DNA from: a virus
Taxonomy: Duplodnaviria; Caudoviricetes
Length of the DNA stretch: 64,000 nt
IMG/VR virus record: IMGVR_UViG_2974531088_000001
Location: 6,708-70,707 of that record
Strand: one strand, 5' to 3'
Below the pieces are notes generated by a model. That model did no database searches and had not been told where the DNA came from. It saw nothing but the letters and a program-made list of their open reading frames with translations. Shown here one piece after another: positions 35,257 through 62,043 of this stretch; the stretch's first letter is position 1, and each line of letters opens with the position of its first letter. The translations under genes and the position numbers were made by a program.

Positions 35257-35283
35257 AAAAACAGGCACGCGCCCCCATAGGTT
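35257..35283 (+). promoter_or_regulatory. Middle-type promoter
   Basis: AAAAACAGGCAC-N9-TAGGTT. Confidence 0.75.
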
Positions 35284-35322
35284 GGAATAGTTCGGTAATC
35301 ACCACAACGAAAAGAGGAAACC

Positions 35323-35412
35323 ATGCCCGTTATCTTGCTTATCCTGGACCTGACCCTTGCCGTGACCGGCTTCATGGCCAACCGCGAGAAACAGCGCAAC
35401 CGCCGCAAGTAG
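35323..35412 (+). CDS. 29-aa membrane peptide MPVILLILDLTLAVTGFMANREKQRNRRK
   Basis: CCACAACGAAAAGAGGAAACC-ATG leader/RBS. Confidence 0.65.
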   Translation: MPVILLILDLTLAVTGFMANREKQRNRRK

Positions 35413-35415
35413 CCA

Positions 35416-35458
35416 CCCCCCCCCCCGGGGCGTGGGCTTCCCCCCTAGCCCACGCCCC
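35416..35458. repeat. C11 run plus perfect 12-bp hairpin
   Basis: GGGGCGTGGGCT-N8-AGCCCACGCCCC. Confidence 0.8.
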
Positions 35459-35493
35459 ACCCCCAGCACCCGCCACAACGAAAGAACCCGACC

Positions 35494-35934
35494 ATGAAAC
35501 TGACCCACCGCGACGCCAAGTTCGACGTCCAGGTCTTGGGCGAGCTCCGCCAGTTCACCATCGAAACCCGCAACGGCGCCGTGATCAGTGTGAGCGAGGG
35601 CGCGGACGGCTCGCTAAGCCTCCACGAGGGAAGCCACCGCAACCTCCGCATTGTGCCCGTAGTGGCCAACAGCGTGCGCATAGACATAGTGGACCCATTC
35701 CTCGAGACAGCCGCCCCCATGACCCCGATAGCGACCGAGGACGCTCTCTCGCGCATCCCGCGCGGGGCCAAGGTCTACAGCGTCCGAACCAAAAGCCTGT
35801 GGGACTGGTGGGGCGCAAACGAACGGCTTGTGGCGAGCAACAACACGGGCTATACAGGCGAAACCTACACAAGCTTTACCGCATTTTGGGCAGCGGAAGC
35901 GCCCCTCCTGCTGGCAGCGCGGCCCAATGACTAA
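35494..35934 (+). CDS. Hypothetical protein
   Basis: GCCACAACGAAAG leader. Confidence 0.7.
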   Translation: MKLTHRDAKFDVQVLGELRQFTIETRNGAVISVSEGADGSLSLHEGSHRNLRIVPVVANSVRIDIVDPFLETAAPMTPIATEDALSRIPRGAKVYSVRTKSLWDWWGANERLVASNNTGYTGETYTSFTAFWAAEAPLLLAARPND

Positions 35935-36211
35935 ACGACGCGCCTACCTCAAAGAACCCATCATTGAGAACCAGGAACAGCTAGACGCCCTCCCGCTAGG
36001 GTCAGTGGTCATTGACAGCTACGGCTACCGAAAGCCAGCGTTCCATGGTGACGTTTACCGCTCAAGTATCAGCGAGGGGGCGTGGGCGTGGTGGCAAGCC
36101 GGACCACAAGGCAAGTTCCAAACCGTCTGTTTCCCCGCCAAAGTCCTCTTGAGGGGCACAGGACCAAACCGCCAAGAACTGATAAAGCAACTCATGGAAG
36201 GCAGCAAGTAA
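35927..36211 (+). CDS. Hypothetical protein (QLDALPLGSVVID motif)
   Basis: Operon coupling. Confidence 0.65.
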   Translation: MTKRRAYLKEPIIENQEQLDALPLGSVVIDSYGYRKPAFHGDVYRSSISEGAWAWWQAGPQGKFQTVCFPAKVLLRGTGPNRQELIKQLMEGSK

Positions 36212-36400
36212 ATGGCTTGGGAATATCACACGGAAGGCAGCCCCGCGCACGTATGGCCGCAAGGGGACACCATCGAACACGACACCACCGACGACAACGG
36301 CGGCTGTATCTGCAAACCCAGGACCGAGGAAGTGCCCCGGGAAGACGGCACAACAGGCCACGTAATCAGCCACAACGCAATGGACGGACGCCCCGAATGA
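36212..36400 (+). CDS. Small His/Cys protein (HDTTDDNGGCICKP…VISHNAMDGR)
   Basis: Resembles a recurrent actinophage mini-domain. Confidence 0.7.
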   Translation: MAWEYHTEGSPAHVWPQGDTIEHDTTDDNGGCICKPRTEEVPREDGTTGHVISHNAMDGRPE

Positions 36401-36900
36401 CCGCAGACCTGACAGCCCTGGACGCAATCCGGGAACGCACCCGCTCATGGGCAGCCGGCAAGCTGCGCACCGCCCGGATAGTCAAAAGCCCACAGACCGG
36501 GCGCTTTGCTGTCCTCAACGGCGTCACCCCGGAAGGCATCGAACTGAACATGGTCATGGTCAACCACGACCCAGGGGGCACCAAAACGCCCGTGTTCGAG
36601 GTGGAAAAAGCGGAAGCCATTGTGGCCGCAGCCCGGGACGCCAAAGCCCTCATGACCCTTGTGGACACCCTCAGAACCCAGTTCAAGCACGAGGCCGAAC
36701 AACTCCGAATCACAGCCGACCGGCTCACCCAAGACTCGCTACACCCGCCAATTGACCGCGACAAGGCAGGACGGCAGGAAGCACGCGAAACCGCCGAACG
36801 CTACCGCAACTTTTCCAGTTGGGCCGACTCAGTGGCCTACAAAATGGACAAAACCATTGACGACGTACTGAACCCCAAGGAAGACCGCCCCAATGAGTAA
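36397..36900 (+). CDS. Hypothetical protein
   Basis: ATGA overlap. Confidence 0.65.
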   Translation: MTADLTALDAIRERTRSWAAGKLRTARIVKSPQTGRFAVLNGVTPEGIELNMVMVNHDPGGTKTPVFEVEKAEAIVAAARDAKALMTLVDTLRTQFKHEAEQLRITADRLTQDSLHPPIDRDKAGRQEARETAERYRNFSSWADSVAYKMDKTIDDVLNPKEDRPNE

Positions 36901-37126
36901 GAACCTCAAGCCCCAGCAAGCGCCCATTCAGGTCAAACAGGCCAGCCCCCGCATTGTGGTGGACGCAGACGCCAAGACCGTCATTCTGGACCTGCAAATG
37001 GACGGGGTGTTCCTCAAGATGGACCCCGAAACCGCACGCAAGCTGGGGGCTGCGCTGGCAGCCGGGGCAGCGAAAGCGGAAGGCCGCACCAAGGGCCACG
37101 TGTTCATGATTGACGGGGGCGAGTAA
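36893..37126 (+). CDS. Hypothetical protein
   Basis: AAGGAAG RBS. Confidence 0.65.
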   Translation: MSKNLKPQQAPIQVKQASPRIVVDADAKTVILDLQMDGVFLKMDPETARKLGAALAAGAAKAEGRTKGHVFMIDGGE

Positions 37127-38085
37127 TGAGCTCACTCACTGACCCCAAGGGCATCAAGCGCACCGTTGCCGCGATCTACTACGGCGGACGGGAACACCCG
37201 CTTGCTAACCTGGCCCGACTCATTGACGGCGCAATCAGCGACGCCCAATTCCAAGGGCTTGGACAGTTCGACGTAGCCCGGTGGGTGGCCCACGCGATCA
37301 CCGAGGACCAGAAAGCCCGGGTTGCCGAGGCCGACAAGACAGCACCCCACGGCCAGTTCGTGCGCAACCCACCCGCGCCCACCCCCGGCGATCCTGAACA
37401 CCGGGCAGCCGCGCAAGCCCTACGCGACGCCTTGCCCAAGCCCGGACTGTGGGACTTCCTCAAGGACTTGCCCACCATTCCTGACCTTGACAGCGTGCGC
37501 ACCCCTGGCCCCCACAAGTTCGAGGACTTCAAGCCCGGGTTCGTGGCCTTTGGTGAAATGCCGGAACTCCCGCCCTTCCCCAAGCTGGACCTGTCAGGCA
37601 TCCCCGCCATGCCCGTGGACATAAAAGAGAGCTTGGAACGCGCGAGCGAGCAACTACGCGAGAGCATGGAACGCGCCGCCAAGGCTGTCCGCAAGGGCAT
37701 TGACGACGCCCGGGCAGCGGAAGCGCGCCGAATCCTGGCAGCGCAACCCCACGAACACATTTACGGGCGCGGCTCTAACGGCTTGTGCCGTATCTGTGGG
37801 GCAGAGTCCAACAGCCGGCGCGCGAGGGCCAAACGCCGCGAAATCAACAACACCAAAGCCAAAGCCGCCGCCCAATACCCCCGGCACGCCGTTGGCGAGA
37901 GGGTCACGCACCTTTCCACCGACTCAAAGGGCACGGTCCTTGAACCCGCAGACCACAACGGCAAGGTCCAGGTCATTTGGGACACCACGGGAAACACCAC
38001 AGCCGTCTACGTGAACACCCTCAGTGCCCCCGAATCCCGGCTTTACGAGGCGTTGAAGAACAAGGGTGACGGCGTTGACGGCTGA
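37126..38085 (+). CDS. Hypothetical protein, Pro-rich centre and SH3/KOW-like C-terminus
   Basis: TAATG overlap; VGERVTH…GTV…KVQVIWD. Confidence 0.7.
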   Translation: MSSLTDPKGIKRTVAAIYYGGREHPLANLARLIDGAISDAQFQGLGQFDVARWVAHAITEDQKARVAEADKTAPHGQFVRNPPAPTPGDPEHRAAAQALRDALPKPGLWDFLKDLPTIPDLDSVRTPGPHKFEDFKPGFVAFGEMPELPPFPKLDLSGIPAMPVDIKESLERASEQLRESMERAAKAVRKGIDDARAAEARRILAAQPHEHIYGRGSNGLCRICGAESNSRRARAKRREINNTKAKAAAQYPRHAVGERVTHLSTDSKGTVLEPADHNGKVQVIWDTTGNTTAVYVNTLSAPESRLYEALKNKGDGVDG

Positions 38086-38224
38086 CGTTCAGGAAGCCCT
38101 CTATGCGTGGTGCCCGTCCTGTTCCATGGGCAGCGACGTGGGCATCATGCGCGCGGAAGCTGAGGCATGGGCCAGCCAGCACAACGAGGACAACCATGGA
38201 GAGGACGCGGAACATGTGGGCTGA
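38075..38224 (+). CDS. 49-aa protein (WCPSC…WASQHN)
   Basis: Read by hand; its CxxC…W…HN pattern recurs in the 38804 protein. Confidence 0.5.
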   Translation: MTADVQEALYAWCPSCSMGSDVGIMRAEAEAWASQHNEDNHGEDAEHVG

Positions 38225-38318
38225 GGCGCTGGTCGAATCCCTCCCGGGGCTGGCCGGGGTGCTGGTGGGCATAGCGGTGGTTCTCTACATGCGGCGCCGG
38301 GACTGGTGGAAGCGGTGA
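38214..38318 (+). CDS. 34-aa single-TM peptide
   Basis: GGAGAGG RBS; hydrophobic stretch followed by RRRDWWKR. Confidence 0.55.
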   Translation: MWAEALVESLPGLAGVLVGIAVVLYMRRRDWWKR

Positions 38319-38773
38319 CGGGCTGGGAAAACCCGCCACTGTGGGAGGACGCTATCGGTGACTTGGCTAGAGCGTGGGAAGCCGCGGCCAACCAGCCCCT
38401 TGAGCCGTTCGTGCCGGTCATGCCGCCCACGGAACAGGAAAAGCTACTTGAGGCCGTGAACGTTCCTCGAGCTCTGCCCGTGTCCTGGGACGGCATCCCC
38501 ATGGAATGGCGGGAATGGCACGCAGAGAACCAAATCACGATATGCCCACCCATCCCACGCGAGCCATGCCCCCACTGTGGCTTTGACGACGCCCCGCGCT
38601 CAATGTGCCGGGGCGTCCGGGTGGGTTCCAAGCTACTGGGGCCACTCTTTGCGTTCCGCTGCCAAGCATGCGGCGGCGACACCGTGCACGACCTCCAAGC
38701 CGGCGATACGTGGATCCTTGAGCTAGACGACTACGGCCCGGAAGGCAGCAACAACGTGAGGCTTACCGACTAA
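38315..38773 (+). CDS. Zn-ribbon protein
   Basis: CPHCG…CQACG. Confidence 0.65.
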   Translation: MTGWENPPLWEDAIGDLARAWEAAANQPLEPFVPVMPPTEQEKLLEAVNVPRALPVSWDGIPMEWREWHAENQITICPPIPREPCPHCGFDDAPRSMCRGVRVGSKLLGPLFAFRCQACGGDTVHDLQAGDTWILELDDYGPEGSNNVRLTD

Positions 38774-38797
38774 AACAGGCACGCGCGGGGGCAGACT
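38772..38797 (+). promoter_or_regulatory. Middle-type promoter, leaderless
   Basis: AAAACAGGCAC-N9-CAGACT-N6-ATG. Confidence 0.75.
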
Positions 38798-38803
38798 TGG
38801 ACT

Positions 38804-39061
38804 ATGACCAATGAACTGCCGGACCTTTCCGACGAATCCCGGTGCATCCCTTTGGCTCAATGCCCGGAATGCCCCAAGCTCATGCCAGCGGACCAAGTGC
38901 GCTGCCAAGCCCACGAGGTGAAAGCCGTAGTGGAACCCACCACCGTGCCCCGGCGCCACCGCGCGTGGTGCGACGCCCACCAGGACGGGTGGAACGGCAC
39001 CAAGCGCACCGCAGAAAAGTGGGCTGCCAAGCACAACGCCGAACACCACCCGGAAGCCTGA
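38804..39061 (+). CDS. Cys/His-rich hypothetical protein
   Basis: Leaderless start. Confidence 0.65.
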   Translation: MTNELPDLSDESRCIPLAQCPECPKLMPADQVRCQAHEVKAVVEPTTVPRRHRAWCDAHQDGWNGTKRTAEKWAAKHNAEHHPEA

Positions 39062-39066
39062 CACCC

Positions 39067-39261
39067 ATGTTGAGCCTGACCCGTAAGGAACGTGAGAGAA
39101 ACCTCGTTTGCCAGCACTGTGGGCGCCCGATTGTCCGCAACACCGGCCCCCGGCACCGTTGGGCGCGCGCCTTGCCCAAGCTCGAATGGCTGCATAACGC
39201 CAAGGACTTTGACCCCACCAAGCCCATTGATTGCTTCACCCCCGAACCCAAGGAAGACTGA
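39067..39261 (+). CDS. Zn-ribbon mini-protein (CQHCGRPI…WLH…C..PEP)
   Basis: Operon position. Confidence 0.6.
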   Translation: MLSLTRKERERNLVCQHCGRPIVRNTGPRHRWARALPKLEWLHNAKDFDPTKPIDCFTPEPKED

Positions 39262-39263
39262 CC

Positions 39264-39782
39264 ATGCCTGAATTCGCCACAGCACGCCAAAGAATCACCG
39301 AATACTTGCGCCAACGCCGGATGCAGACCCGCGACTTGGGCAACGCTATCCACGTCACCTACACAGACCCCAAGGGCCACCCCGCCGAGCTCACATATTC
39401 GGACCTTGACGAGGTTATGTTGACCTCAACAGGGCTGCCGTCCTGGACGTTCTTCTACGCATTCCACGCAGCCATGGACGCCCTCAAGGACCACGAGGCA
39501 TGGGCTATGGGACGCGGGGAAGACCTGACCGGAAACGGCACCATCAGTTACCCCGTGAGGTGCGTTAGCTGCCCCGGCCAGTGGCACACCTACGCCCTGC
39601 ACCCGGAAGACGCCCGGGAACTGTTCCGCGGCCACCAAGCCGGGATAATCGCCGCGCGCATGCGTGACACCTTCCAAAACCCAGACAAGGCAGAGGAACA
39701 ACAGCTAATCCTTGACCGGGTATGGCATGAAGGCTGGGACGCCAACGACGGCGACGAAAGCCCCTATGGAGTGGCCGAATGA
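39264..39782 (+). CDS. Hypothetical protein
   Basis: AAGGAAG RBS. Confidence 0.65.
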   Translation: MPEFATARQRITEYLRQRRMQTRDLGNAIHVTYTDPKGHPAELTYSDLDEVMLTSTGLPSWTFFYAFHAAMDALKDHEAWAMGRGEDLTGNGTISYPVRCVSCPGQWHTYALHPEDARELFRGHQAGIIAARMRDTFQNPDKAEEQQLILDRVWHEGWDANDGDESPYGVAE

Positions 39783-40648
39783 GCGCCACCATTGCCACTG
39801 TCCTTGCCGCCCACCCTGACTGGGGTTACAAGCCTGTTCTGACCGCTGACGAACTGGGGACCGTAATCCACTGCATGGGCGAGGGGTGCACCTGGAAGGC
39901 TGAAAACCCGCCCCTCACCTTGAAGGGCAACGAGTTGTTCCGCGCCCACCAAGCTGAGGAACTGGCCAAAGCCCTTGAGTTCAAGCCTGTTGAGCTCGCA
40001 ACCAAGCCGCTGACGTTCAACAGCACCCAGCGCCCGGAAGTGTTGCGCCGATTCAACAGCGACATTGAGGGCGGCACGCTCAAGCTCATGCACGATCAGG
40101 GGCTTATCCGGCACCTGACCTTCCGCCCCCGCAAGGGTAATTTCTGCTGGTTCGACATAATCACCAGCCCCGGGCAACTCACCATCAGGGGCGACATGGG
40201 CGACTTTGTATTCGTGCGCGAGCCGGACATGCTGAGGGACTTTTTCAGCCGCGACGTGAACCCCCATTACTGGCGGGAAAAGCTGGTGGCACAAGACGTT
40301 TCCACCCCTGCATGGCAATATGAGCGCGAGCTATACACCAAGTACGTGGCCCAACACTTCTGGGACCGCCGCACCAAGTACACCCCGGACGTGGCAGCCG
40401 CCCTATGGCGCGAAATCCGGGAGACTGGCCCACTGAGTGACTGGGCAGACGCCCACGACGCCACAAGCGCATGGACCACCCTAGACGCGTTCGTTGGCGA
40501 GCATGCGCCCTACCGTTACGAATCCGATTACGAGGAAGACTTCCACGATTACAGCTACCAATATCTGTGGTGCTGCCATGCCGTGCTACTGGCTTGCCGT
40601 GCGTATCGTGAACACCACCGAACCATCAACCAGGAAGTGAGCCAATGA
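39779..40648 (+). CDS. Hypothetical protein (RHLTF…TSPGQLTIRGDMG…DMLRDFF…YWREKL)
   Basis: Resembles a recurrent phage domain of unknown function. Confidence 0.7.
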   Translation: MSATIATVLAAHPDWGYKPVLTADELGTVIHCMGEGCTWKAENPPLTLKGNELFRAHQAEELAKALEFKPVELATKPLTFNSTQRPEVLRRFNSDIEGGTLKLMHDQGLIRHLTFRPRKGNFCWFDIITSPGQLTIRGDMGDFVFVREPDMLRDFFSRDVNPHYWREKLVAQDVSTPAWQYERELYTKYVAQHFWDRRTKYTPDVAAALWREIRETGPLSDWADAHDATSAWTTLDAFVGEHAPYRYESDYEEDFHDYSYQYLWCCHAVLLACRAYREHHRTINQEVSQ

Positions 40649-41061: not shown

Positions 41062-41073
41062 CGACACCCAAAA

Positions 41074-41118: not shown

Positions 41119-41147
41119 CAGCCCACCAGCAAACAAAGAGGTTGACC

Positions 41148-41369
41148 ATGGCAAAGCACCGCGTAACCCACCTGACCAAGTGCCATGAGTGCGCCACACT
41201 CGTTGAGGAACCATGCCGGGGCGCATTCGATTACGCCCTATGTTCCAGGCATCGTGATTGCCAATCTTGCCCAATTCGAGGCATCCAGCAAAAACCGGCA
41301 CAACCGCTGGTTAGCTTGGACTATGACAACAAAGCAGAACCCGACCAGCCCTTCCCCCAAGCCGCCTAA
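41148..41369 (+). CDS. Cys-rich small protein
   Basis: AAAGAGG RBS; CHEC…C…C…CQSC; 3' end overlaps the next promoter and gene. Confidence 0.55.
   Translation: MAKHRVTHLTKCHECATLVEEPCRGAFDYALCSRHRDCQSCPIRGIQQKPAQPLVSLDYDNKAEPDQPFPQAA
41290..41317 (+). promoter_or_regulatory. Middle-type promoter, leaderless
   Basis: AAAAACCGGCAC-N10-TAGCTT-N5-ATG (variant spacing). Confidence 0.6.
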
Positions 41370-43172: not shown

Positions 43173-43405
43173 AACAAGGAAAGTATTGGTGCCTGGCACT
43201 CGCTGCCGTGGCTTTGCTGCTGTTCGGCGCCCTGATTTGGACGGGTGACGGACGCTATGGCGGGTTGGCGTGGCTGGCCGTCGTCGGTGCGATCATTGCC
43301 GGGTTGGTGGGCATCACTCAAGCCGTCAAAAGCGAAACCCAGGAACTCAAAAAACACCCCGCGTTGGGCTGGGAGGAAGAACAGGCACGGAAGGCCACAG
43401 ACTAG
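43169..43405 (+). CDS. Two-TM membrane protein
   Basis: Two hydrophobic helices. Confidence 0.65.
   Translation: MKQGKYWCLALAAVALLLFGALIWTGDGRYGGLAWLAVVGAIIAGLVGITQAVKSETQELKKHPALGWEEEQARKATD
43377..43403 (+). promoter_or_regulatory. Middle-type promoter, leaderless
   Basis: AAGAACAGGCAC-N9-CAGACT-N6-ATG, embedded in the upstream CDS. Confidence 0.7.
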
Positions 43406-43409
43406 AACC

Positions 43410-43589
43410 ATGGCAGATAACCAGCATCCCGACATTCCGAAAGTCTCACCCCTCGTGGCGGACGCCATGGCCCTTGGTGAGGTCTTGCAAGCGTTCGTTG
43501 AAGCCGGGTGGAACAAAGACGACGCAATAAAGTACATGGCCATTCAATCCGCAACCAGGGGGGTGCAACGTGAACAGCTTGGACTTTGA
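43410..43589 (+). CDS. 59-aa protein ending in EQLGL
   Basis: Leaderless start; …FVEAGWNKDDAI…. Confidence 0.65.
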   Translation: MADNQHPDIPKVSPLVADAMALGEVLQAFVEAGWNKDDAIKYMAIQSATRGVQREQLGL

Positions 43590-45773: not shown

Positions 45774-45800
45774 AAAAACAGGCACGCGGACCCAGAGAAT
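45774..45800 (+). promoter_or_regulatory. Middle-type promoter, leaderless
   Basis: AAAAACAGGCAC-N9-GAGAAT-N6-ATG. Confidence 0.8.
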
Positions 45801-45806
45801 AGAACC

Positions 45807-46616
45807 ATGACCACTACACCGATGATTGAGAGCTTCCGGGCACTCATTGAAGCCAACGGGCACACCCTCCCTGCTGAACTCAAAAGCGCTGAACTGTTCG
45901 CCGGGTACGGCGGCTTAGCCCAAGCCATTGAACGGGGCTTTGGAGCTCGCAGCGTGTGGCTTAGCGAGTTCGACCCGGCACCCTCCAAAATCCTTGCCCA
46001 CCACTTCCCGGGGATCCCCAATCTGGGGGACGTGACCAAAATTGATTGGGACGCAATCGCCGCGGACCCGCTCATGCGCCCCCACATCATGGGCGGCGGG
46101 TTCCCCTGCCAGGACGTGAGCCTTGCCGGTCTGCGCAAGGGGCTGACCTCAAGCACCCGGTCAGGTCTGTGGTTCCACTTCCTCAAAGGCATAGTGGCCC
46201 TGCAGCCCGAGTTCGTGCTATTCGAGAACGTCCGGGGCATCCTTTCCGCCAAGTCAGTCAGGGACATGGAAAGCACCCCCGAATCGTTGGCCCTAGACGC
46301 CGAAATTGAAGAACTGACCACCCGCCGCGAAATCCTCCACACAGAATTGGACCACCTCTATGACTCCGCTGCCCACGCTGAATTCAACGCCCTTGAGGAC
46401 CGAATTTCTGGCCTCCTGGAACAGCGAGACGGGATTGTGGGAGACGGGGCAAGCGGACCTGTTCAGCGAGCACTTGGAACCGTTCTCGGAGACTTGGCCG
46501 ATGCAGGGTATGACGCGCAATGGGCTGGCCTACGCGCTGCCGACGTGGGCGCCCCCCATGGGCGTTTCCGCGTCTTCGGCCTTGGAATCCGGCGCGACCT
46601 CCTCAACGCTGCTTAA
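45807..46616 (+). CDS. DNA cytosine-C5 methyltransferase, N-terminal (catalytic) subunit
   Basis: Motif I ELFAGYGG, IV GGFPCQ, VI ENV, VIII HGRFRVF; motifs IX-X absent. Confidence 0.9.
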   Translation: MTTTPMIESFRALIEANGHTLPAELKSAELFAGYGGLAQAIERGFGARSVWLSEFDPAPSKILAHHFPGIPNLGDVTKIDWDAIAADPLMRPHIMGGGFPCQDVSLAGLRKGLTSSTRSGLWFHFLKGIVALQPEFVLFENVRGILSAKSVRDMESTPESLALDAEIEELTTRREILHTELDHLYDSAAHAEFNALEDRISGLLEQRDGIVGDGASGPVQRALGTVLGDLADAGYDAQWAGLRAADVGAPHGRFRVFGLGIRRDLLNAA

Positions 46617-48173: not shown

Positions 48174-48200
48174 AAAAACAGGCACACCCGCTGACAGAAT
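48174..48200 (+). promoter_or_regulatory. Middle-type promoter, leaderless
   Basis: AAAAACAGGCAC-N9-CAGAAT-N6-ATG. Confidence 0.8.
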
Positions 48201-48206
48201 GAACTC

Positions 48207-49784
48207 ATGACCAATGACACCCCCATATTCCCGCTGTCCGATGCCGAGATTCAGGAAGCCTACGCGCCCGAACTCCACTACCAGGACAGCCATGTGACCT
48301 TGTGGCATGGCGATTGCGTGGACGTTCTCAAGACCCTGCCGGACAACAGCGTCGACGCCGTCGTCACAGACCCGCCCTACGGTATCCGCTTCATGGGCAA
48401 GGCATGGGACGGCGAGGACATAGAGGAAATGACCCGCAAGCGCCGCGAGTCCAAGCCCATGCCTGACGGTGCCGGTGGCCCCAACGGCGGGTATCAGTCC
48501 GCCAGCACTGAGGCCGGACGCTACAACCAGACCCTCACAGCGAACCAGGCATTTGGGGAATGGTGCCTCGAGTGGACGCGCGAGTGCTTCCGTGTCCTCA
48601 AACCGGGTGGCCACATTCTCGCGTTCGGCGGTTCCAGGACATGGCACCGGCTCGCGTCCGCCGTTGAAGATGCTGGCTTTGAAATCCGGGACTCAATCGC
48701 ATGGCTCTACGGTTCCGGGTTCCCAAAATCCATGGACATTTCCAAGGCAATCGACAAAATGCGCCACGAGTCAGCGGACAAGCTCAAAGTCACCTCGTGG
48801 CTGGCTGACCAAGCCGACGCTAACAACATCACCCGGCGCATGCTGGACATTGCCATGGGAACCAGCGACATGGGCGGCTGGTGGCTGTCCCGCCTGGAAC
48901 ACCGCTGCCAAGTGCCCACCATGGAGCAAATCCCCCGCGTGCTGGCCACCCTTGGGGTTGAGGCTGAGGACGTGCCGGCCGACATTCAGGAACTCATTTT
49001 TGAGCTCAACGGCGCCAAGGGCACCCCGGGCAAGGCATGGCTTGAGCGCGAGGTAATCGGCACACGCGAAACAGGCGACGCGCTGGGCTGGCTGCAATCC
49101 ACTGGCAGCATTACCAAGACCGTGGACGTGACCACCGCAGCGTCCGACGCAGCCAAGCAATGGGAGGGCTGGGGCACCACGTTGAAGCCGTCCTTTGAAC
49201 CCGTCGTCGTGGGACGCAAGCCCATGCGCCTGACCACAGCGGCCAACGTCCTCAAGCACGGCACCGGGGGCATGAACATTGCCGCCACCAGGGTGGGCGA
49301 CGAACTGCGCACCAACAGCGCTGGCGGGGTGTCCAGTCTTCACGCCGTCAGCCGGGTGGAACAGGGCTACCGCGAGAACGTCAGCGAATGCGAGGGCGAG
49401 GCATCCAGCGTGAACGGGCGCTGGCCCACCAACGTGCTGCTGGACGATTTCACCGCGGAACTGCTGGACGCCCAAGAACGCGACGCGTCCCAGTTCTTCC
49501 CCATCTTCCGCTATGAAGCCAAAGCCCCCGCGTCCGAACGGCCCAACGTGGACGGCACCATGCACCCCACCGTCAAACCCCTGGACCTCATGCGCTGGCT
49601 TATCAAGCTGGTCACGCCCCCGGGCGGCACCGTCCTGGAACCCTTCGCCGGGTCCGGCACGACCGCTGAGGCATGCGTCATGGAGAACATGCACTGCATA
49701 GCCATTGAGCGCGAGGCCGACTATCTGCCCCTGATCCGGCACCGCCTTGAAAAGCCCATTGAGGTGGCCCTTTTCAACGTCTGA
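48207..49784 (+). CDS. DNA amino-methyltransferase (N6A/N4C, beta class) with internal insertion
   Basis: DPPY near the N-terminus; HPTVKP…VLEPFAGSGTT near the C-terminus. Confidence 0.92.
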   Translation: MTNDTPIFPLSDAEIQEAYAPELHYQDSHVTLWHGDCVDVLKTLPDNSVDAVVTDPPYGIRFMGKAWDGEDIEEMTRKRRESKPMPDGAGGPNGGYQSASTEAGRYNQTLTANQAFGEWCLEWTRECFRVLKPGGHILAFGGSRTWHRLASAVEDAGFEIRDSIAWLYGSGFPKSMDISKAIDKMRHESADKLKVTSWLADQADANNITRRMLDIAMGTSDMGGWWLSRLEHRCQVPTMEQIPRVLATLGVEAEDVPADIQELIFELNGAKGTPGKAWLEREVIGTRETGDALGWLQSTGSITKTVDVTTAASDAAKQWEGWGTTLKPSFEPVVVGRKPMRLTTAANVLKHGTGGMNIAATRVGDELRTNSAGGVSSLHAVSRVEQGYRENVSECEGEASSVNGRWPTNVLLDDFTAELLDAQERDASQFFPIFRYEAKAPASERPNVDGTMHPTVKPLDLMRWLIKLVTPPGGTVLEPFAGSGTTAEACVMENMHCIAIEREADYLPLIRHRLEKPIEVALFNV

Positions 49785-49810
49785 GAAACAGGCACGCACG
49801 CACTTACGCT
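49785..49810 (+). promoter_or_regulatory. Middle-type promoter
   Basis: GAAACAGGCAC-N9-TACGCT, then a GCCACAACGAAAGG leader. Confidence 0.75.
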
Positions 49811-49841
49811 GGAACTATCAGCCACAACGAAAGGGCCAACC

Positions 49842-51994: not shown

Positions 51995-52228
51995 ATGAGC
52001 GAGTACAGCCCCAGAATCGGTGACGTTGTGGAATACACGACCCTTGACGGCATCCAAGTGCCGGCCATGATTACCGCCGTCGTCAACAGCGCCAACGCCG
52101 TTGACCTGGATATTCGTTACCCCAAGACCGTGGCCGAGGATCCCATCCCGGAAGGCCACAACCCTGACCTTATTTGCTATTTGCCGTCCGACGAACCAAA
52201 GCCCGGGCGCTGGCAGGTCCGTAAGTAA
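51995..52228 (+). CDS. SH3-like small protein (PRIGDVVEY…PAMITAV…GRW)
   Basis: Purine-rich RBS. Confidence 0.7.
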   Translation: MSEYSPRIGDVVEYTTLDGIQVPAMITAVVNSANAVDLDIRYPKTVAEDPIPEGHNPDLICYLPSDEPKPGRWQVRK

Positions 52229-52254
52229 AAAACAGGCACGGCGCTGCATAGGCT
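52228..52254 (+). promoter_or_regulatory. Middle-type promoter
   Basis: AAAAACAGGCAC-N9-TAGGCT-N7-ATG. Confidence 0.8.
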
Positions 52255-52261
52255 GGGAGGT

Positions 52262-52636
52262 ATGAGCCACAATTACCCCCCAGCGCTGACCGCTTTGGCG
52301 GAAAAGATCATGACAGCGCAACACACCTGGACAAACGAGGCCGAACTGCAAGCCTCAATAGACGCCGCACTCAAGACCGCTGGATACAGCCCCACCCGCG
52401 AGGTGGCATTATCCAGCGGTCTTGGGCGTGTCGACCTTATGGTCGGCAAGGTGGGCATTGAGGTGAAGATTGCCGGGTCATGGCAGCAACTCACCCGGCA
52501 GGTCATGCGGTACACCCACGCCCCCGAAATCGGGGCGGTGCTGGTGGTCACCACCAAGGCAGCGCACGCCCGAAATGTGCCCGTCCAGGCGAACGGCAAA
52601 CCAATCCTTACTATCTTCCTGAATGGGGCATTTTGA
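52262..52636 (+). CDS. PD-(D/E)xK nuclease-fold protein
   Basis: E…RVDLMV…IEVK…QVMRY. Confidence 0.75.
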   Translation: MSHNYPPALTALAEKIMTAQHTWTNEAELQASIDAALKTAGYSPTREVALSSGLGRVDLMVGKVGIEVKIAGSWQQLTRQVMRYTHAPEIGAVLVVTTKAAHARNVPVQANGKPILTIFLNGAF

Positions 52637-54620: not shown

Positions 54621-54972
54621 CACATGGCCCCGGGACGCCGCCGGCAACATACGCATGGTGCTGTATGTTGCCGGTCCCATGTCCGGGCTACCGGCCTACA
54701 ACCGCCCCAAATTCAACGAGGTAACCGACGAATTACGGCGCTTTGGGTACTACGTGTTAAATCCGGCACGGCAGCCATTAGGTTTGGAATATAACGACTA
54801 CATGAGGCGCGGCATCAACGACGTTCACAAGTCAGACGGGGTGGCACTACTCCCGGGCTGGGAACAATCGAACGGTGCACGCCTGGAACACCTGATAGCC
54901 AGAAAGCTGGGGCTGGAATGCCGGCCCTATACCGACTGGGAAAACCTTTACGAACAGGAACCGCCACAATGA
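54610..54972 (+). CDS. DUF4406 / nucleoside deoxyribosyltransferase-like protein
   Basis: YVAGPMSGLPAYNRPKF…VLNPA…LLPGWEQSNGARLEH. Confidence 0.85.
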   Translation: MAADTWPRDAAGNIRMVLYVAGPMSGLPAYNRPKFNEVTDELRRFGYYVLNPARQPLGLEYNDYMRRGINDVHKSDGVALLPGWEQSNGARLEHLIARKLGLECRPYTDWENLYEQEPPQ

Positions 54973-57110: not shown

Positions 57111-57475
57111 ACTACCGTGACCCCAGCACCCGCAAGAACGCCACAAGGGGACGCCGCGCGCCCGACGCCGCACCCGCACCCCTGGAACCCCGCAACGGGC
57201 GTGGACCCGGCAAGCCCAAGCCCGTGGTCAGGACCACCCAGCCGGCACGCGAAAACCACTGGATGAAAGACCTCTACCTAGCCACCCCCGAACCGCCCCG
57301 CGACCCCGCCACGATCCGGGCAGACCTCATGGAAGCCGAGAAACTGACCCACGACCCTGACGTCGTGCATGAGGAAGGCAGCTGGGGCAGCAACGAATGC
57401 CCCCGCTGCGCAGCCATGGAACCCCTCAGCAACGAACTACTACGCGCCACACTGAGGGGGCCAAATGCGGGGTAA
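57107..57475 (+). CDS. Hypothetical protein
   Basis: TTGA overlap; GAAAGG RBS. Confidence 0.55.
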   Translation: MNYRDPSTRKNATRGRRAPDAAPAPLEPRNGRGPGKPKPVVRTTQPARENHWMKDLYLATPEPPRDPATIRADLMEAEKLTHDPDVVHEEGSWGSNECPRCAAMEPLSNELLRATLRGPNAG

Positions 57476-57977
57476 CAAGCTGCCCCTGGAACAGCGATTT
57501 TGGGCCAAGGTTGCCGTCAAAGAGCCGCGCGAGTGCTGGCCATGGACGGGAAGCATGCACGCGCAAGGCTATGGGAAGCTGGGGGCAGGGAAGCGGGGCA
57601 AGTCATTTTTGGCCCACCGTTTCGCCTATGAGCTCACCAACGGCCCGATTCCTGACGGGCTGCATATAGACCACACATGCCACAACGGCACGGACTGCCC
57701 TGGCGGCAAGACCTGCCAACACCGGAAATGCTGCAACCCGTCCCACCTGGAAGCCGTGGAACCAGTGGAGAATGTGAGCCGGTCCCACAACGCAAACGAA
57801 CACAAGACCCATTGCCCAAAGGGCCACGAGTACACCCCGGAAAACACCTATCGGCAGCCGTCCAAACCGAACGCGCGCCGCTGCCGACGTTGCGCGGCGA
57901 TCTTGGACGCGCAACCCCACCGCACGCGCGCCGGACGGCGCGAGACGAAACGAAAGAGGCAAGAACATGGCCGGTGA
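57465..57977 (+). CDS. HNH homing endonuclease
   Basis: RFWAKV…CWPWTG…GYG…AHRFAYE…IDHTC…[10 protein letters not shown]…EN. Confidence 0.92.
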
Positions 57978-58539
57978 AACCACCATCACGGTGATTGGCA
58001 ATCTGACGACGGACCCCGAGCTTAGATTCGTACCTTCCGGCAGCGCGGTGGCCAACTTCACCATTGCCAGCACCCCGCGCACCTTTGACCGTCAGAGCAA
58101 CGAGTGGAAGGACGGGGAAACCCTCTTTTTGCGTGCGTCTATCTGGCGTGAGGCTGCCGAGAACGTGGCCGAGTCGCTGACCAAGGGCATGCGCGTGATT
58201 GTGTCCGGGCGGCTCAAGTCCCGCAGCTATGACACCAAGGAAGGCGAAAAGCGCACGGTCATTGAGCTTGAGGTGGACGAAATCGGCCCCAGCTTGCGCT
58301 ACGCCCAAGCCAAGGTGAACCGGACGCAGCGCAGCAACAACAACCAGGGTGGCGGGTTCGGCGGCGGTAACGGCGGGTCACAAGGCGGCTTTGGTGGTGG
58401 GGGCGGATATAGTAATCAAGGCGGTTTTGGTGGCGGTGCGAGTAGCGCGCCGGCCAACGCGGACGATCCGTGGGCCACTCCCGGTGTCAGCAATGCTGGC
58501 GGCTGGGGGAATGGCCCCGATTCCGAACCGCCCTTTTAG
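57967..58539 (+). CDS. ssb: Single-stranded DNA-binding protein
   Basis: [15 protein letters not shown]…[20 protein letters not shown]…; Gly-rich tail ending DSEPPF. Confidence 0.97.
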
Positions 58540-58590
58540 CTTCCAGTTGGTCCGGTTAGGTGCGTTTGGGTGTAGTGGAGGTAGTACGCC

Positions 58591-58644
58591 ATGAATCCCC
58601 AAGATGATGTAGACGTTGCCAGCGATCCGGTAGCCAACAGGTGA
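58591..58644 (+). CDS. Possible 17-aa acidic peptide MNPQDDVDVASDPVANR
   Basis: GGAGGT-N8-ATG; lies between ssb and the terminator. Confidence 0.35.
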   Translation: MNPQDDVDVASDPVANR

Positions 58645-58683
58645 AGGCAGAGGACGCAGGGCGTTGCGTTGGAAGCCTGACGG

Positions 58684-58720
58684 GAAAGCCCCCGGCGCAC
58701 GCTCGCGCTGGGGGCTTTTT
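58684..58720. terminator. Intrinsic terminator
   Basis: GAAAGCCCCCGGCGC…GCGCTGGGGGCTTTTT. Confidence 0.88.
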
Positions 58721-58731
58721 CGTGTCTTCAC

Positions 58732-58761
58732 TTGTGCCATTCTGTAGTGGGGTGCTACATT
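58732..58761 (+). promoter_or_regulatory. SigmaA-type promoter with palindromic operator
   Basis: TTGTGC-N18-TACATT; 22 bp identical to the 23013-23034 reverse complement. Confidence 0.8.
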
Positions 58762-58801
58762 TCTTGTATTGCAGTAATCGCCACAGCAAAGGACCAAGAC
58801 C

Positions 58802-59608
58802 ATGCCGACCTACACCACCAGCAACACAGACGTTTACCAGGGTGCGACCATGACCAACGACGAAACCGGGCACTCAGTCAAGGAAGCTGACTATGTGACC
58901 GTGGGCAAGTCCAAAAACGAGTGGTTCGTAAACCGGGTTCTGTGGCATGGGCTTGTGGAGATTGAACGCCAAAAGCCCAAGGGTGGCCTGACCCACCGCC
59001 GTGTGTGCATTGACGACCTCACGGTCACGCTGACCACCCGCACGGACGCCGAATATGAGGAAGTCCCCATGAAGGCCACAGAGGACGCGTGGCCCACCGC
59101 CGCTGACCTTGTGGCACACGCTCAAGCGTTGCTGGATAGCGGCGAGGCTGTGGACCTTGACGACGCGCTAGACGCTGCCGACGATTTGTTCCCGGAAGTT
59201 CCAGACGGCGACGACGAACGCCGCGCGTTCCACCGCCGCGCTGAGGGCATCATGCAGGAAGCGGTCAAGATCATGGAAGCGCGAGCGGTTACAGACACCC
59301 CCACGCCGCTACTCCACCCCAAGCGCGAGGTGTTCGACGTGAAAGCGAGCTTGGACGGCAAGAGGGTAGTGGAGACAATCACCGTGCAGGGTAACATCAA
59401 GCGCGCCCGGTCTGTGGCTGACATGCTCGCATGCAAGCACGGGTTCGGGCCGTTGGTGACCGAATTTCACACCAATTCCCTTGAGTGCCACCAAGGGCGA
59501 GACGGCGGCGTGGTTGAGATTGAGGATATGGACGCGGACTTCCCCGAAACCGGGCCGTGGGATGAAGAAATGACCTACGAACGCAGCGTAATTGACGCCG
59601 ATTACTAG
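58802..59608 (+). CDS. Acidic early protein (monocistronic)
   Basis: Has its own promoter, leader and terminator. Confidence 0.75.
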   Translation: MPTYTTSNTDVYQGATMTNDETGHSVKEADYVTVGKSKNEWFVNRVLWHGLVEIERQKPKGGLTHRRVCIDDLTVTLTTRTDAEYEEVPMKATEDAWPTAADLVAHAQALLDSGEAVDLDDALDAADDLFPEVPDGDDERRAFHRRAEGIMQEAVKIMEARAVTDTPTPLLHPKREVFDVKASLDGKRVVETITVQGNIKRARSVADMLACKHGFGPLVTEFHTNSLECHQGRDGGVVEIEDMDADFPETGPWDEEMTYERSVIDADY

Positions 59609-59626
59609 ACCACCCCAACCCGCAAT

Positions 59627-59651
59627 AGCCACCCCGTGAGGGTGGCTTTTT
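59627..59651 (+). terminator. Intrinsic terminator
   Basis: AGCCACCC-cgtga-GGGTGGCTTTTT. Confidence 0.8.
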
Positions 59652-59663
59652 GCGTACCCCGAC

Positions 59664-59690
59664 AAAAACCGGCACGCACGCAGAGAGAAT
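59664..59690 (+). promoter_or_regulatory. Middle-type promoter, leaderless
   Basis: AAAAACCGGCAC-N9-GAGAAT-N6-ATG. Confidence 0.8.
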
Positions 59691-59696
59691 TAGACC

Positions 59697-59936
59697 ATGG
59701 ACGCTTTCGAGTATCAGACAGTGAAAGTCCCCCGCGACGCCAAGGGACGCAGCAAAGCGCTGACGGCCTACGGTGCGCAGGGGTGGGAAGTCACGGACAC
59801 CAAGGACGCATGGCAAAAGACGGTCACCGTGACCATGCGCCGTGTGGTTCCAGGTGGCGCGAAAATCAAGCCCAAGACCCCGGGACTGTTCGCCCTGATA
59901 TTCGGGGCACTGACCCGCCACAACACCGCTAAGTAA
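59697..59936 (+). CDS. Small protein resembling DUF4177-type domains (FEYQTV…L..YGAQGWEV)
   Basis: Leaderless start. Confidence 0.65.
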   Translation: MDAFEYQTVKVPRDAKGRSKALTAYGAQGWEVTDTKDAWQKTVTVTMRRVVPGGAKIKPKTPGLFALIFGALTRHNTAK

Positions 59937-59948
59937 AGGAACCCAGCT

Positions 59949-61064
59949 TTGAAACTCACCATTGATTCCACCGCGCTGAACGACGCCGTGGCGTTCGCTT
60001 CCCGGGCCGTGAACCCCCGCCATACCGTCGCAACGTTGACGGGTCTTGTCCTGGAAGCTTCCCGGGGGGTGCTGTCCATTAGTGGCTTTGATCAGACCAA
60101 GGCCAATGCTGTGGAAATCGCCGCTGACATTGAGGAAGACGGCAAGGCGCTTTTGCCCGGTGTTGTGCTGGCCAACATGCTCAAGACCCTGCCGAATAAC
60201 AAGCCCTTGGACTTGGAAGTTGGCGACAGGGCCACCCTCAAGGTGGGGCGCGCTAAGTTCTCCACCCCGGTTATGCCCATGAATGACTACCCCACTTTGC
60301 CGGGGCTGCCCCAGCGGCTTGGGTCCGTGGATTCGGACCTTTTCGCCAAGGCCGTGGCTCAAGTCCAGCACGCTGCCGGCCGGAACTCTGACGTGGAGGT
60401 GCTGAACGGCATCTTGGTGGAGCTCCGGGGCGACACTTTGGGGTTCGTGTCCACTGACCGTTACCGCATGGCCGTGGCTGAGGTTCCCATCACCCGCTAT
60501 GAGGGCACGCCGGACGTGGCGGACTTCCTTGTGCTGGCTGAGGTTATCGCCAACGCTGCGAGGGCGAACAGCGGCAACATGGACGTGCTTGGTTCGGAAG
60601 CCCGTATTGGGTTCGTGTCCGCGACCAGGACAAGCACGGCCAACCTCATGGGCGGCAAGTATCCGAACGTCAGGGCACTGTTTCCGGCTGACCACCAGAT
60701 TGCGAACACGGCCACCATTGACGTTGACGCGCTGCTGGGGGCTGTGACTCGCGCCGCCGTCGTCGTGGACGGCAAGAACCCCATTCGCCTGACGTTCCAC
60801 CCGGGTGAGGTCATTGTCGACGCTGGCCGCGCTGACTCCAACGCTGGTGAGGAAGCGGTGGAGTGCTGGCACGACTTCGAGACGGTATCCGCTGCCGGGT
60901 TCAACCCCACCTATTTGGCTGAGGGCTTGCGCTCGCTGACGACACCCCAAGCGCACTTTGGGTTCAACATTGAAACGACGCTCAAGCCGGTCCTGTTGAC
61001 CGAGCCGGGACCGAAGCCCACGGCGCGCCAACTGCTCATGCCAATGCGACTTACCAGCGTCTAG
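59949..61064 (+). CDS. dnaN: DNA polymerase III beta sliding clamp
   Basis: 371 aa; LTGLVLEA…STDRYRMA…GKYPNVRAL…GFNPTYLAEGL…KPVLL…LLMPMRL. Confidence 0.93.
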   Translation: MKLTIDSTALNDAVAFASRAVNPRHTVATLTGLVLEASRGVLSISGFDQTKANAVEIAADIEEDGKALLPGVVLANMLKTLPNNKPLDLEVGDRATLKVGRAKFSTPVMPMNDYPTLPGLPQRLGSVDSDLFAKAVAQVQHAAGRNSDVEVLNGILVELRGDTLGFVSTDRYRMAVAEVPITRYEGTPDVADFLVLAEVIANAARANSGNMDVLGSEARIGFVSATRTSTANLMGGKYPNVRALFPADHQIANTATIDVDALLGAVTRAAVVVDGKNPIRLTFHPGEVIVDAGRADSNAGEEAVECWHDFETVSAAGFNPTYLAEGLRSLTTPQAHFGFNIETTLKPVLLTEPGPKPTARQLLMPMRLTSV

Positions 61065-61118
61065 CGCGTGTTAATCTAAGAGTCCTTCCTGCGTCGGGTT
61101 GCGAGGGGTCATAGAGGG

Positions 61119-61149
61119 AACCGGGGTTATGCAAATGCCCCGGTTTTTT
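61119..61149 (+). terminator. Intrinsic terminator
   Basis: AACCGGGG…CCCCGGTTTTTT. Confidence 0.75.
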
Positions 61150-61156
61150 CTTGCCC

Positions 61157-61183
61157 AAAAACAGGCACAACAGCGCATAGCTT
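61157..61183 (+). promoter_or_regulatory. Middle-type promoter, leaderless
   Basis: AAAAACAGGCAC-N9-TAGCTT-N5-ATG. Confidence 0.75.
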
Positions 61184-61188
61184 TGAGA

Positions 61189-61665
61189 ATGTACCGACAC
61201 CGACGAATTGAGGATCCATTGATTCCCGTAGACCAGACCATTTTTGCTGACCCGGCATCTAACGACGGCAACGCTGCTGACGGCACCCCGGGCAACTGCT
61301 TCCAGGCGTGTGTTGCTTCGCTGCTGGAACTGCCCCTTGAGGACGTGCCCCACTTCATCACGCATGAGGACTGGTGGGAGGTCACCAAGGCTTTCGTGTC
61401 CGCGCACAAGCCGGGGTGGACCATTGAGCATTTCGATACTGTGTTCCCGGCCTACCAAGACCCGGACCACCCGGAAGCGCCCACCCATGTGATTGGGTCC
61501 GGGAAGTCCCCGCGCGGCGACTTCTACCACGCGGCGATTGTGGACGCTGTGACGGGCGAGCTCGCGCACGACCCGCACCCGTCCCGGGCCGGTTTCTTGG
61601 GTGAGATGGATAGCATGTTTGCCCTCGTGGCTAAGCCCACGGTTGAACAGGTGGCAGGGAATTGA
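61189..61665 (+). CDS. Papain/peptidase-C39-like fold hypothetical protein (GNCFQACVASLL…HA…HDPHP)
   Basis: Cys…His…Asp pattern; fold assignment is an inference. Confidence 0.6.
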   Translation: MYRHRRIEDPLIPVDQTIFADPASNDGNAADGTPGNCFQACVASLLELPLEDVPHFITHEDWWEVTKAFVSAHKPGWTIEHFDTVFPAYQDPDHPEAPTHVIGSGKSPRGDFYHAAIVDAVTGELAHDPHPSRAGFLGEMDSMFALVAKPTVEQVAGN

Positions 61666-62009
61666 GCTACGACATTCACGCCGTGGTTCCCGCGCGCGAG
61701 GGCTGCTGTGCATGCCATGGTGGCGAGAACCTGGACATTGGGAACACCACCAGCAACACGTCCCCGCTGTGGCGCCACGCCGCCCCGCAGACGGACGGGC
61801 TGGCCGGAATCCATGGCAAGGCCGGCGGCGAGTTCGCCGCGTATCTGCGCACCAGCCTGGAACACATGAAAGCCCACCGACCAGAGTACGAACCACTGGT
61901 GAGGGGCGGCGGCGAGTGGGGCACTTATGACACCGCTGTTGAGTACATGACCCGGGTTGTGGAAGCCGCCGAGAAGCACCCCACGGCACGGTTTTACGTC
62001 AGCACCTAA
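61662..62009 (+). CDS. Hypothetical protein (MSYDI…N…WGTYD)
   Basis: TTGA overlap. Confidence 0.65.
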   Translation: MSYDIHAVVPAREGCCACHGGENLDIGNTTSNTSPLWRHAAPQTDGLAGIHGKAGGEFAAYLRTSLEHMKAHRPEYEPLVRGGGEWGTYDTAVEYMTRVVEAAEKHPTARFYVST

Positions 62010-62016
62010 TAGACCC

Positions 62017-62043
62017 AAAAACAGGCACGCAGCGTGTCACGCT
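62017..62043 (+). promoter_or_regulatory. Middle-type promoter
   Basis: AAAAACAGGCAC-N9-CACGCT. Confidence 0.75.

Follow-up and report, generated by a model that had tools for sequence, protein, structure and literature searches.

In the middle promoters of phage T4, which depend on MotA/AsiA "sigma appropriation," a phage box replaces the -35 element, and the -10 element of the host primary sigma factor is kept (PMC7403470). A related arrangement is known from actinobacteria: PafBC promoters have the form tGTCgg-N10-tANNNT, with an element at -28 to -23 and no -35, and their activator is wedged between the DNA and region 4 of sigmaA (PMC8635444). In actinobacteria, promoters read by sigmaA have TANNNT, and of the genes for which a primary start has been mapped, roughly one in four is leaderless (PMC3898074). 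Here we describe a repeated, oriented box that precedes a -10-like hexamer at a fixed distance in the right arm of a phage genome from the class Caudoviricetes. The analyzed DNA, called the window below, is a stretch of 64,000 nucleotides (nt) that corresponds to bases 6708-70707 of the 70,707-bp IMG/VR virus record IMGVR_UViG_2974531088_000001. Its right arm is mostly 80-85% identical to Arthrobacter myophages of cluster AR, genus Klausavirus (PrincessTrina, ArV1, DrYang, Lymara, and KBurrousTX), whose isolation host is mostly Arthrobacter sp. ATCC 21022. Judging by this similarity, the phage is itself an Arthrobacter cluster AR member.

Our comparison supports the view that the boxes form a dedicated promoter-like class, because the distance between box and hexamer is fixed, the orientation is single, and the boxes are conserved at orthologous junctions. 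We consider it fairly probable (roughly 0.6) that they are the upstream halves of hybrid promoters private to the phage, in which a host sigmaA-type -10 element is combined with a box bound by an early phage factor. In this scheme, the host sigmaA holoenzyme would read a weak -10 element and the discriminator, and the early-made phage factor would read the box and would replace or reposition sigma region 4. The class would then switch on right-arm operons for DNA metabolism after early genes that have promoters of the form TTGNNN-N18-TANNNT. A promoter element contacted by a protein that also touches RNA polymerase would be expected to show what the boxes show, namely a rigid distance of 9 nt, one orientation throughout, and a location at -33 to -21. 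What we infer is where transcription starts, when the class is active, that a factor is needed, and which factor this would be. The label "middle," which a preceding sequence-only reading had given to the class, is reasonable but likewise inferred, as is the complete three-step cascade that it proposed.

The abundance and orientation of the boxes are well above what chance would give. A search for AAAAACMGGCAC with at most one mismatch found 12 matches in the window, as against 1.1 expected, and none of 100 shuffles reached 12; 11 of the 12 lie on the + strand, from 35257 to 62028. Over the whole genome, the pattern AACMGGCAC-N9/10-NANNNT occurs 11 times on the forward strand, and neither on the reverse strand nor in a reversed-pattern control. 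These counts bear out the sequence-only reading, which had listed 11 copies on the coding strand of the right arm. Its coordinates are right to within one base: the aligned 12-mers at 38771 and 49784 begin one base earlier than it had placed them, with T and AG as their first bases. The spacing also agrees with its description, as the spacer is N9 at ten sites and N10 at 41290, where N9 with a poorer hexamer is an alternative.

A position weight matrix (PWM) built from the box sites added one weaker conserved site, at 54758, and in the four phage genomes and the one metagenomic contig searched, every PWM match that scored more than 12 bits is on the coding strand. The added site scores 22-24 bits, compared with 28-47 for the others. 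It is possibly an internal promoter; its conservation is ambiguous because it resides inside a coding sequence.

To describe the promoter anatomy, 45 sites from five genomes were aligned, with box position 0 as the first base and position 33 as +1. With the hexamer set at -12 to -7, the box occupies -33 to -21, the usual place of a -35 element. It is an asymmetric word of 12-13 bp with the consensus (A/T)RRAACMGGCAC(G/A). Positions 0-11 (-33 to -22) are nearly invariant, with 1.7-2.4 bits each, and position 12 is G or A. The spacer (positions 12-20) is G+C-rich and otherwise free in sequence (0.04-0.6 bits each). In the hexamer, position 22 (-11) is A in 42 of 45 sites, and position 26 (-7) is T in 43 of 45. 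By contrast, position 21 (-12) is T in only 21 of 45 sites across relatives and in 5 of 11 in this phage, in line with the previous remark that the -10 often lacks its first T. The discriminator at positions 27-30 is GGGA-like, with G, R, R, and A in 31, 44, 44, and 35 of the 45 sites. According to work on Thermus and E. coli, a discriminator of the GGGA type contacts sigma region 1.2. A pyrimidine occupies position 32 (-1) in 41 of 45 sites, and a purine occupies position 33 (+1) in 39 of 45. A simple consensus scan for promoters found neither a TTG-type -35 nor a sigma-70 consensus at the box sites; together with the alignment, this upholds the earlier placement of the box at about -33 to -22 with no TTG -35. 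The individual sites are listed in Table 1.

Table 1. Box promoters, a weaker variant of them, and candidate DNA-binding proteins in the window
Feature	Positions	Strand	Architecture	Predicted start, context, or remarks
Box promoter 1	35257..35292	+	AAAAACAGGCAC-N9-TAGGTT	Leader; predicted +1 near 35290; ATG 35311
Box promoter 2	38771..38806	+	TAAAACAGGCAC-N9-CAGACT-N6-ATG	Predicted leaderless
Box promoter 3	41290..41325	+	AAAAACCGGCAC-N10-TAGCTT-N5-ATG	Predicted leaderless
Box promoter 4	43377..43412	+	AAGAACAGGCAC-N9-CAGACT-N6-ATG	Predicted leaderless
Box promoter 5	45774..45809	+	N9-GAGAAT-N6-ATG	Predicted leaderless; before C5 cytosine methyltransferase
Box promoter 6	48174..48209	+	N9-CAGAAT-N6-ATG	Predicted leaderless; before N6/N4 methyltransferase; directly after terminator hairpin
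Box promoter 7	49784..49819	+	AGAAACAGGCAC-N9-TACGCT	Leader; AGCCACAACGAAAGGGCCAACC ahead of ATG 49842
Box promoter 8	52228..52264	+	N9-TAGGCT-N7-ATG	Predicted leaderless; before operon of Cas4-like nuclease and SNF2 helicase
Weaker variant	54758..54793	+	TAAATCCGGCAC-N9-TAGGTT	Intragenic; present in all four genomes
Box promoter 9	59664..59699	+	AAAAACCGGCAC-N9-GAGAAT-N6-ATG	Predicted leaderless; before 79-aa gene and beta-clamp; directly after terminator hairpin
Box promoter 10	61157..61221	+	N9-TAGCTT	After terminator hairpin; probable start TTG 61219
Box promoter 11	62017..62086	+	N9-CACGCT	Leader; ATG 62084; operon includes 56-aa helix-turn-helix gene (62561-62731)
84-aa helix-turn-helix protein	28780..29034	+		Early operon; Pfam HTH_23/HTH_28 below family cut-offs
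73-aa excisionase/MerR-like helix-turn-helix protein	23035-23256	-		Conserved in all relatives
56-aa helix-turn-helix protein	62561-62731	+		Downstream of box 62017; conserved in all relatives

Many of the boxes stand at a constant distance from a start codon. An ATG lies at box position +32 to +34 at eight sites (38804, 41323, 43410, 45807, 48207, 52262, 59697, and 61189), and at all of these except 61189, the ATG begins at position 33 (position 34 in the case of 52228). In the leaderless type, the ATG follows exactly 7 nt after T(-7). At four sites this ATG is the first possible start, since an in-frame stop codon 6-36 nt upstream makes an earlier start impossible: the stop lies 33 nt upstream at box promoter 2, where there is no alternative upstream start, and 15, 36, and 6 nt upstream at box promoters 6, 8, and 9, respectively. 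In comparisons of orthologues, amino-acid conservation sets in 1-3 codons after the ATG. For example, NQHPD is conserved from codon 3-4 on in the product behind box promoter 4, and MDAFEYQTVKV is conserved behind box promoter 9 despite synonymous changes. Differences in codons 2-11 number 161, 170, and 209 by codon position, and the N-termini diverge with insertions and deletions. The annotation of PrincessTrina (SEA-PHAGES) starts genes on the corresponding ATGs.

Therefore, with +1 predicted at the A of the ATG, the mRNAs at seven sites should be leaderless, lacking both a leader and a ribosome-binding site. The true start codons would thereby be fixed for at least seven genes per genome. 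Eight leaderless starts had previously been proposed; the ATG positions are as described at all eight, but only seven are convincing. The ATG at 61189 has no counterpart at the orthologous sites of PrincessTrina and ArV1, and for this reason, we take box promoter 10 to have a leader. The gene behind it probably starts at TTG 61219, which matches the start of PrincessTrina gp106 and is preceded by GAGGA. The leaders at 35257, 49784, and 62017 are ~20-35 nt long and carry the recurrent translation signal of the phage, CCACAACGAAAGG; in the leader of box promoter 1, CACCACAACGAAAAGAGG stands ahead of ATG 35311.

Two further patterns were seen around the start codons. Leaderless genes (38804, 41323, 45807, 48207, and their orthologues) favor ATG-ACC/ACA, which encodes Met-Thr and often Met-Thr-Thr, and motif positions +4 to +6 are A, C, and C in 33, 25, and 31 of 45 sites. 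The bias may stem from what is preferred in the first transcribed bases or from the demands of translation without a leader. A second -10 element (nAnnAT at -4 to +2, with TG before it) was considered and rejected: it would initiate inside genes, the ATG accounts for its A and T, and 2 of 4 groups of leadered sites lack it.

A hairpin at 35240-35285 has box 1 in its loop and a stem of ~10 bp, GGGGGTGCG...CGCGCCCCC, with a folding energy of -23.7 kcal/mol as RNA. Its 3' stem arm coincides with the promoter spacer. Orthologous sites of box promoter 1 occur in PrincessTrina, ArV1, and DrYang, and changes in these genomes preserve the pairing. Because no T-run follows, the hairpin is not a plain terminator.

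A motif search in related phages found the box at orthologous junctions in PrincessTrina, ArV1, and DrYang. The conserved features are the box, A(-11), T(-7), the GGGA-like discriminator, and the pyrimidine/purine pair at -1/+1, while the 9-nt spacers drift and differ freely among genomes. The box persists even where the N-terminus of the downstream protein differs or the gene is replaced, as at the N6 methyltransferase and at the gene after 38771. By this comparison, box promoters mark junctions of changing gene content. The N6/N4 methyltransferase at 48207 lacks the N-terminal part that starts with MTLCDPCQ in PrincessTrina and MPLCPPCQ in DrYang; homology begins at residue 20 here and 94-103 codons into the relatives' genes (PrincessTrina 27561, DrYang 29333).

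Within IMG/VR, the only records with several copies of the box per contig are those of Klausavirus isolates and a single metagenomic contig, which has ~72% identity in the helicase, SSB, and clamp genes. A more distant relative, with an HTH-RecE-RecT (HTH, helix-turn-helix) arrangement and the same type of iterons, carries the variants AACAGGCAC-N10-TAATGT and AACCGGCAC-N9-TAACGT. A motif scan of genome contigs gave single chance matches among the matches listed. For the host, two host-family genomes were reached through a match to a Micrococcaceae SSB, and 61 genomes of that genus were then searched. In these 61 genomes, the motif had 195 matches versus 198 for the reversed control, which is chance level, and its density was ~0.7 per Mb versus 156 per Mb in the phage. 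A stricter form of the motif had 40 matches versus 17 in the control; its repeat matches look like one orthologous coding site. The motif is thus not a host-type element, and given the chance level in the host genus, the box is private to the phage, which argues for a reader made by the phage. The phage SSB (57967-58539), from which the host sample was derived, shows ~80% full-length identity to the SSB encoded in the chromosomes of Micrococcaceae (Arthrobacter/Pseudarthrobacter), and it was thus perhaps captured from a host fairly recently.

The placement of the boxes relative to terminators and genes is also that of promoters. Folding revealed strong hairpins with T-runs that end directly before 48174, 59664, and 61157, which substantiates the earlier observation that several sites directly follow a terminator. 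It also revealed a strong terminator hairpin ~90 nt upstream of 45774 and a weak hairpin before 49784. A simple terminator scanner had missed the terminators on the + strand because of its T-run rule; folding recovers them. At 38771, 49784, and 52228, there is overlap between the box and the stop codon of the gene before it (at box promoter 2, this stop codon is the TAA of the box), so the entire promoter fits into a gap of 30-60 nt. The targets had been said to include both methyltransferases, the nuclease-helicase pair, and the clamp operon, and this proved correct. They are the C5 and N6/N4 methyltransferases, the beta-clamp, a block from the Cas4-like nuclease and SNF2 helicase through RusA, HNH, and SSB, and many small genes of unknown function.

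Canonical promoters are present elsewhere in the phage, namely TTGGTA-N18-TATAGT at 26691, TTGGTA-N18-TAAGGT at 29052, TTGTGC-N18-TACATT at 58732, and a further one near 23040 on the minus strand. They precede the operons of the SMC-like ATPase, RecE/RecT, and the replication initiator, as well as two other blocks. Since these promoters have the form TTGNNN-N18-TANNNT, the box class constitutes a distinct second class. Several observations concern these and other elements of the genome. In the region 26691-26909, a strong hairpin that resembles a terminator and has a T-run stands ~60 nt behind the promoter TTGGTA-N18-TATAGT, and the leader of the first early gene comes only after it; this arrangement may represent an attenuator or a short RNA. 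The two TACATT promoters, at 23013-23034 (-) and 58740-58761 (+), share the palindrome TGTAG-N7-CTACA across the spacer and the -10, and their spacers are 18 nt. The "late" motif CCCGTCCCACA (1396, 5369, 7658, 16424, 23325, and 41083) usually has GACAC 4-6 nt upstream, and the conserved late element is therefore longer than reported. Iterons GATCACAAA / GATCGCAAA with a period of ~12 bp lie at 32820-32900, downstream of the replication-initiator gene, and are followed by a stretch rich in ACCA/AACC; the same iteron arrangement occurs in a distant metagenomic relative (its 3770-3860).

To look for a reader of the box, Pfam scans were applied to ~75 predicted phage products, with structural genes only partly covered; no Sigma70, WhiB, WYL, MotA, or AsiA domain was found among them. 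Three DNA-binding candidates are conserved in all relatives (28780-29034, 23035-23256, and 62561-62731; Table 1). The 84-aa HTH protein is the candidate best suited by position and fold, and we regard it as a lead. Its structure model, with a predicted local distance difference test (pLDDT) score of 90.8, consists of one 49-residue helix followed by the HTH. Its nearest neighbors are small HTH_23, HTH_28, or Sigma70_r4-like proteins, and a word search found only Klausavirus relatives. A fold search showed weak likeness to HTH domains of the resolvase/Hin type and of the sigma-4/LuxR type, with no significant match; the best was to helix E and the HTH of gamma-delta/Hin-type recombinases (E=0.45). 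Domains of the resolvase/Hin type read asymmetric half-sites of 12 bp, with an arm in the minor groove of an A-tract, which would suit AAAAA+CAGGCAC and serves here as a lead only. A zinc-finger protein (33037-33426) was rejected as the reader because PrincessTrina has the boxes but not the zinc-finger gene. A 268-aa early protein (58802-59608) had no informative match. Tentatively, and at somewhat less than even odds, we propose that a small Klausavirus protein, not homologous to MotA/AsiA or PafBC, binds the box at -33 to -21 and adapts or appropriates region 4 of the housekeeping sigma factor, the 84-aa HTH protein being the best lead.

Other explanations of the boxes need to be weighed against that of a hybrid promoter read by a phage factor. 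Host RNA polymerase with sigmaA (or sigmaB) might use these sites unaided, with the -10 and the discriminator being sufficient; the box would be a -35 substitute evolved by the phage, or a bent A-tract or UP-like element, that makes binding stronger and needs no extra protein. Many actinobacterial promoters do have a -10 only, without a -35 consensus (PMC3898074). Conservation is good at A(-11), at T(-7), and in the discriminator, and no phage activator was identified among the products scanned. However, an invariant, contiguous word of 12-13 bp at a fixed distance far exceeds the needs of an A-tract, the host-genus genomes make no use of the box, ordinary TTGNNN -35 elements occur elsewhere in the phage, and T(-12) is absent from half of the sites. 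We thus judge unaided use to be rather unlikely. Similarly improbable, in our estimation, is that the box is the operator of a phage repressor that silences constitutive -10-only promoters, like the stoperators of mycobacteriophage L5. The rigid 9-nt distance and phasing are typical of promoter elements and activator sites and needless for operators; moreover, every box has a -10-like hexamer, these -10 elements are weak, and the products scanned include no recognizable integrase or immunity repressor. In favor of an operator are the asymmetry of the site, its repetition in a single orientation, its overlap with the core promoter, and the presence of several genes for small HTH proteins.

A divergent phage sigma-like factor that Pfam does not detect could also replace the host sigma factor and read the box as a -35-type element. 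About half of the products have no family match, and phage sigma factors can escape profile searches, as exemplified by T4 gp55 and SPO1 gp34. Nonetheless, we think such a factor quite unlikely: there is no Sigma70_r2 or r4 match in the ~75 products, the -10, discriminator, and start-site features resemble those of the primary sigma factor, and the box is a contiguous 13-bp word 9 nt from the -10, and not a hexamer 16-18 nt away. Finally, a site for recombination, replication, packaging, or methylation, and not for transcription, would leave unexplained the fixed distance to NANNNT, to the Y/R start, and to the ATG, as well as the single orientation with transcription and the placement after terminators. 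Despite the presence of three methyltransferases, RecE/RecT, and an origin with iterons, we hold this to be highly improbable.

The hybrid-promoter explanation has its own difficulties. We found no transcript 5' ends, timing data, or binding data for any Klausavirus. The 84-aa HTH protein is a candidate by position and fold only, and its distant relatives adjoin RecE/RecT or the SMC-like ATPase, so its role may equally be in recombination. The host-genus sample, reached through SSB, may not include the isolation strain ATCC 21022, and the reader may be a host factor that has very few sites in the chromosome, perhaps one or two. Also, -10-only promoters are usable by actinobacterial RNA polymerase (PMC3898074); therefore, the box may modulate initiation and not enable it.

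The sequence-only reading had called the regulon undescribed, and this holds within the literature searchable here: no description of the motif was found in the accessible literature, a scope to which the ArV1 paper (J Virol 2017) does not belong. Promoters are nowhere mentioned in Klyczek 2017 (PMC5513430), and a full-text search for AACAGGCAC gave only unrelated primer sequences among the matches listed. The significance of the class is limited, because the replacement of a -35 by a box and leaderless phage genes are already known from T4, PafBC, and Thermus phages. As an observation, the class is solid, and it is readily testable in a cultivable system. It is unusually well defined, since each genome has 11-12 sites in which the core is invariant and the geometry fixed, and the SEA-PHAGES isolates that carry it can be grown on a laboratory host; both a hunt for the factor and the mapping of start sites are therefore directly feasible. 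It would also offer compact and possibly inducible promoters (~33 bp, no leader needed) for Arthrobacter and related Micrococcaceae. We know of no phage factor that redirects an actinobacterial housekeeping sigma factor to a private promoter class, and to our knowledge, transcription control in actinobacteriophages beyond repressors is poorly mapped. If a small Klausavirus protein does act on the box in the way proposed above, no earlier sigma-redirecting activator system would have been described for an actinobacteriophage, and this one would be linked with systematic expression from leaderless mRNAs.

Several phage systems resemble the box class in part. Stoperators of mycobacteriophage L5 and cluster A are asymmetric 13-bp repressor sites that occur in many copies, dispersed over small gaps between genes, and are oriented with transcription. 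They are unphased with respect to the -10 or the start codon, whereas every box here is phased to a -10, and no integrase or repressor family is among the products scanned. The start-associated sequences (SAS/ESAS) of cluster K mycobacteriophages are conserved short words that, like the box, are repeated just upstream of gene starts. They are part of the mRNA, at 3-8 nt from the start codon, whereas the end of the box is 21 nt away from the ATG and separated from it by a -10-like hexamer. The Thermus phages P23-45 and phiYS40 have promoters without a -35, with an extended -10, and with many leaderless mRNAs. One Thermus phage protein, gp39, displaces sigma region 4 (PMC3950348). The absence of a -35, a start at or next to the start codon, and a host in which leaderless mRNAs are common are shared with our phage; the extended -10 of the Thermus phages, in contrast, has no conserved upstream box.

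At the boxes, TTGNNN is not found 16-19 nt before the -10, as it is in the canonical sigmaA promoters at 26691, 29052, and 58732. An analogy to T4 MotA promoters had been drawn before, and it stands with regard to architecture: the TAnnnT of the primary sigma is retained (A(-11) in 42/45, T(-7) in 43/45, and T(-12) in only 21/45), and the class drives genes that are expected after the early genes. It fails for the word and the proteins, as AAAAACAGGCAC at -33 to -21, centered near -27, is not the MotA word at -30, and MotA/AsiA were not found in the products scanned. Moreover, this phage has an actinobacterial host and many predicted leaderless transcripts. A second proposed analogy, to WhiA/WhiB sites, is unsupported, the WhiB domain being in none of the phage products scanned. 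From the comparison of architectures, the -26 element of PafBC promoters is the closer actinobacterial analogue. The "sigma adaptation" of PafBC shares with the box class the phylum and the architecture (in the phage, a CAGGCAC core at -28 to -22, a 9-nt spacer, and no TTG), and in the favored explanation, the housekeeping sigmaA holoenzyme would be retained in both. The differences are that CAGGCAC follows an A-tract and has no conserved GTC triplet, as opposed to tGTCgg; that PafBC, a heterodimer of WYL-domain proteins, belongs to the host and responds to activation by single-stranded DNA, whereas the phage products scanned are without WYL; and that the phage box is not enriched in host-genus genomes. 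Because sequence and proteins differ from both PafBC and T4 MotA/AsiA, the relation of the box class to these systems is one of functional analogy and not of membership.

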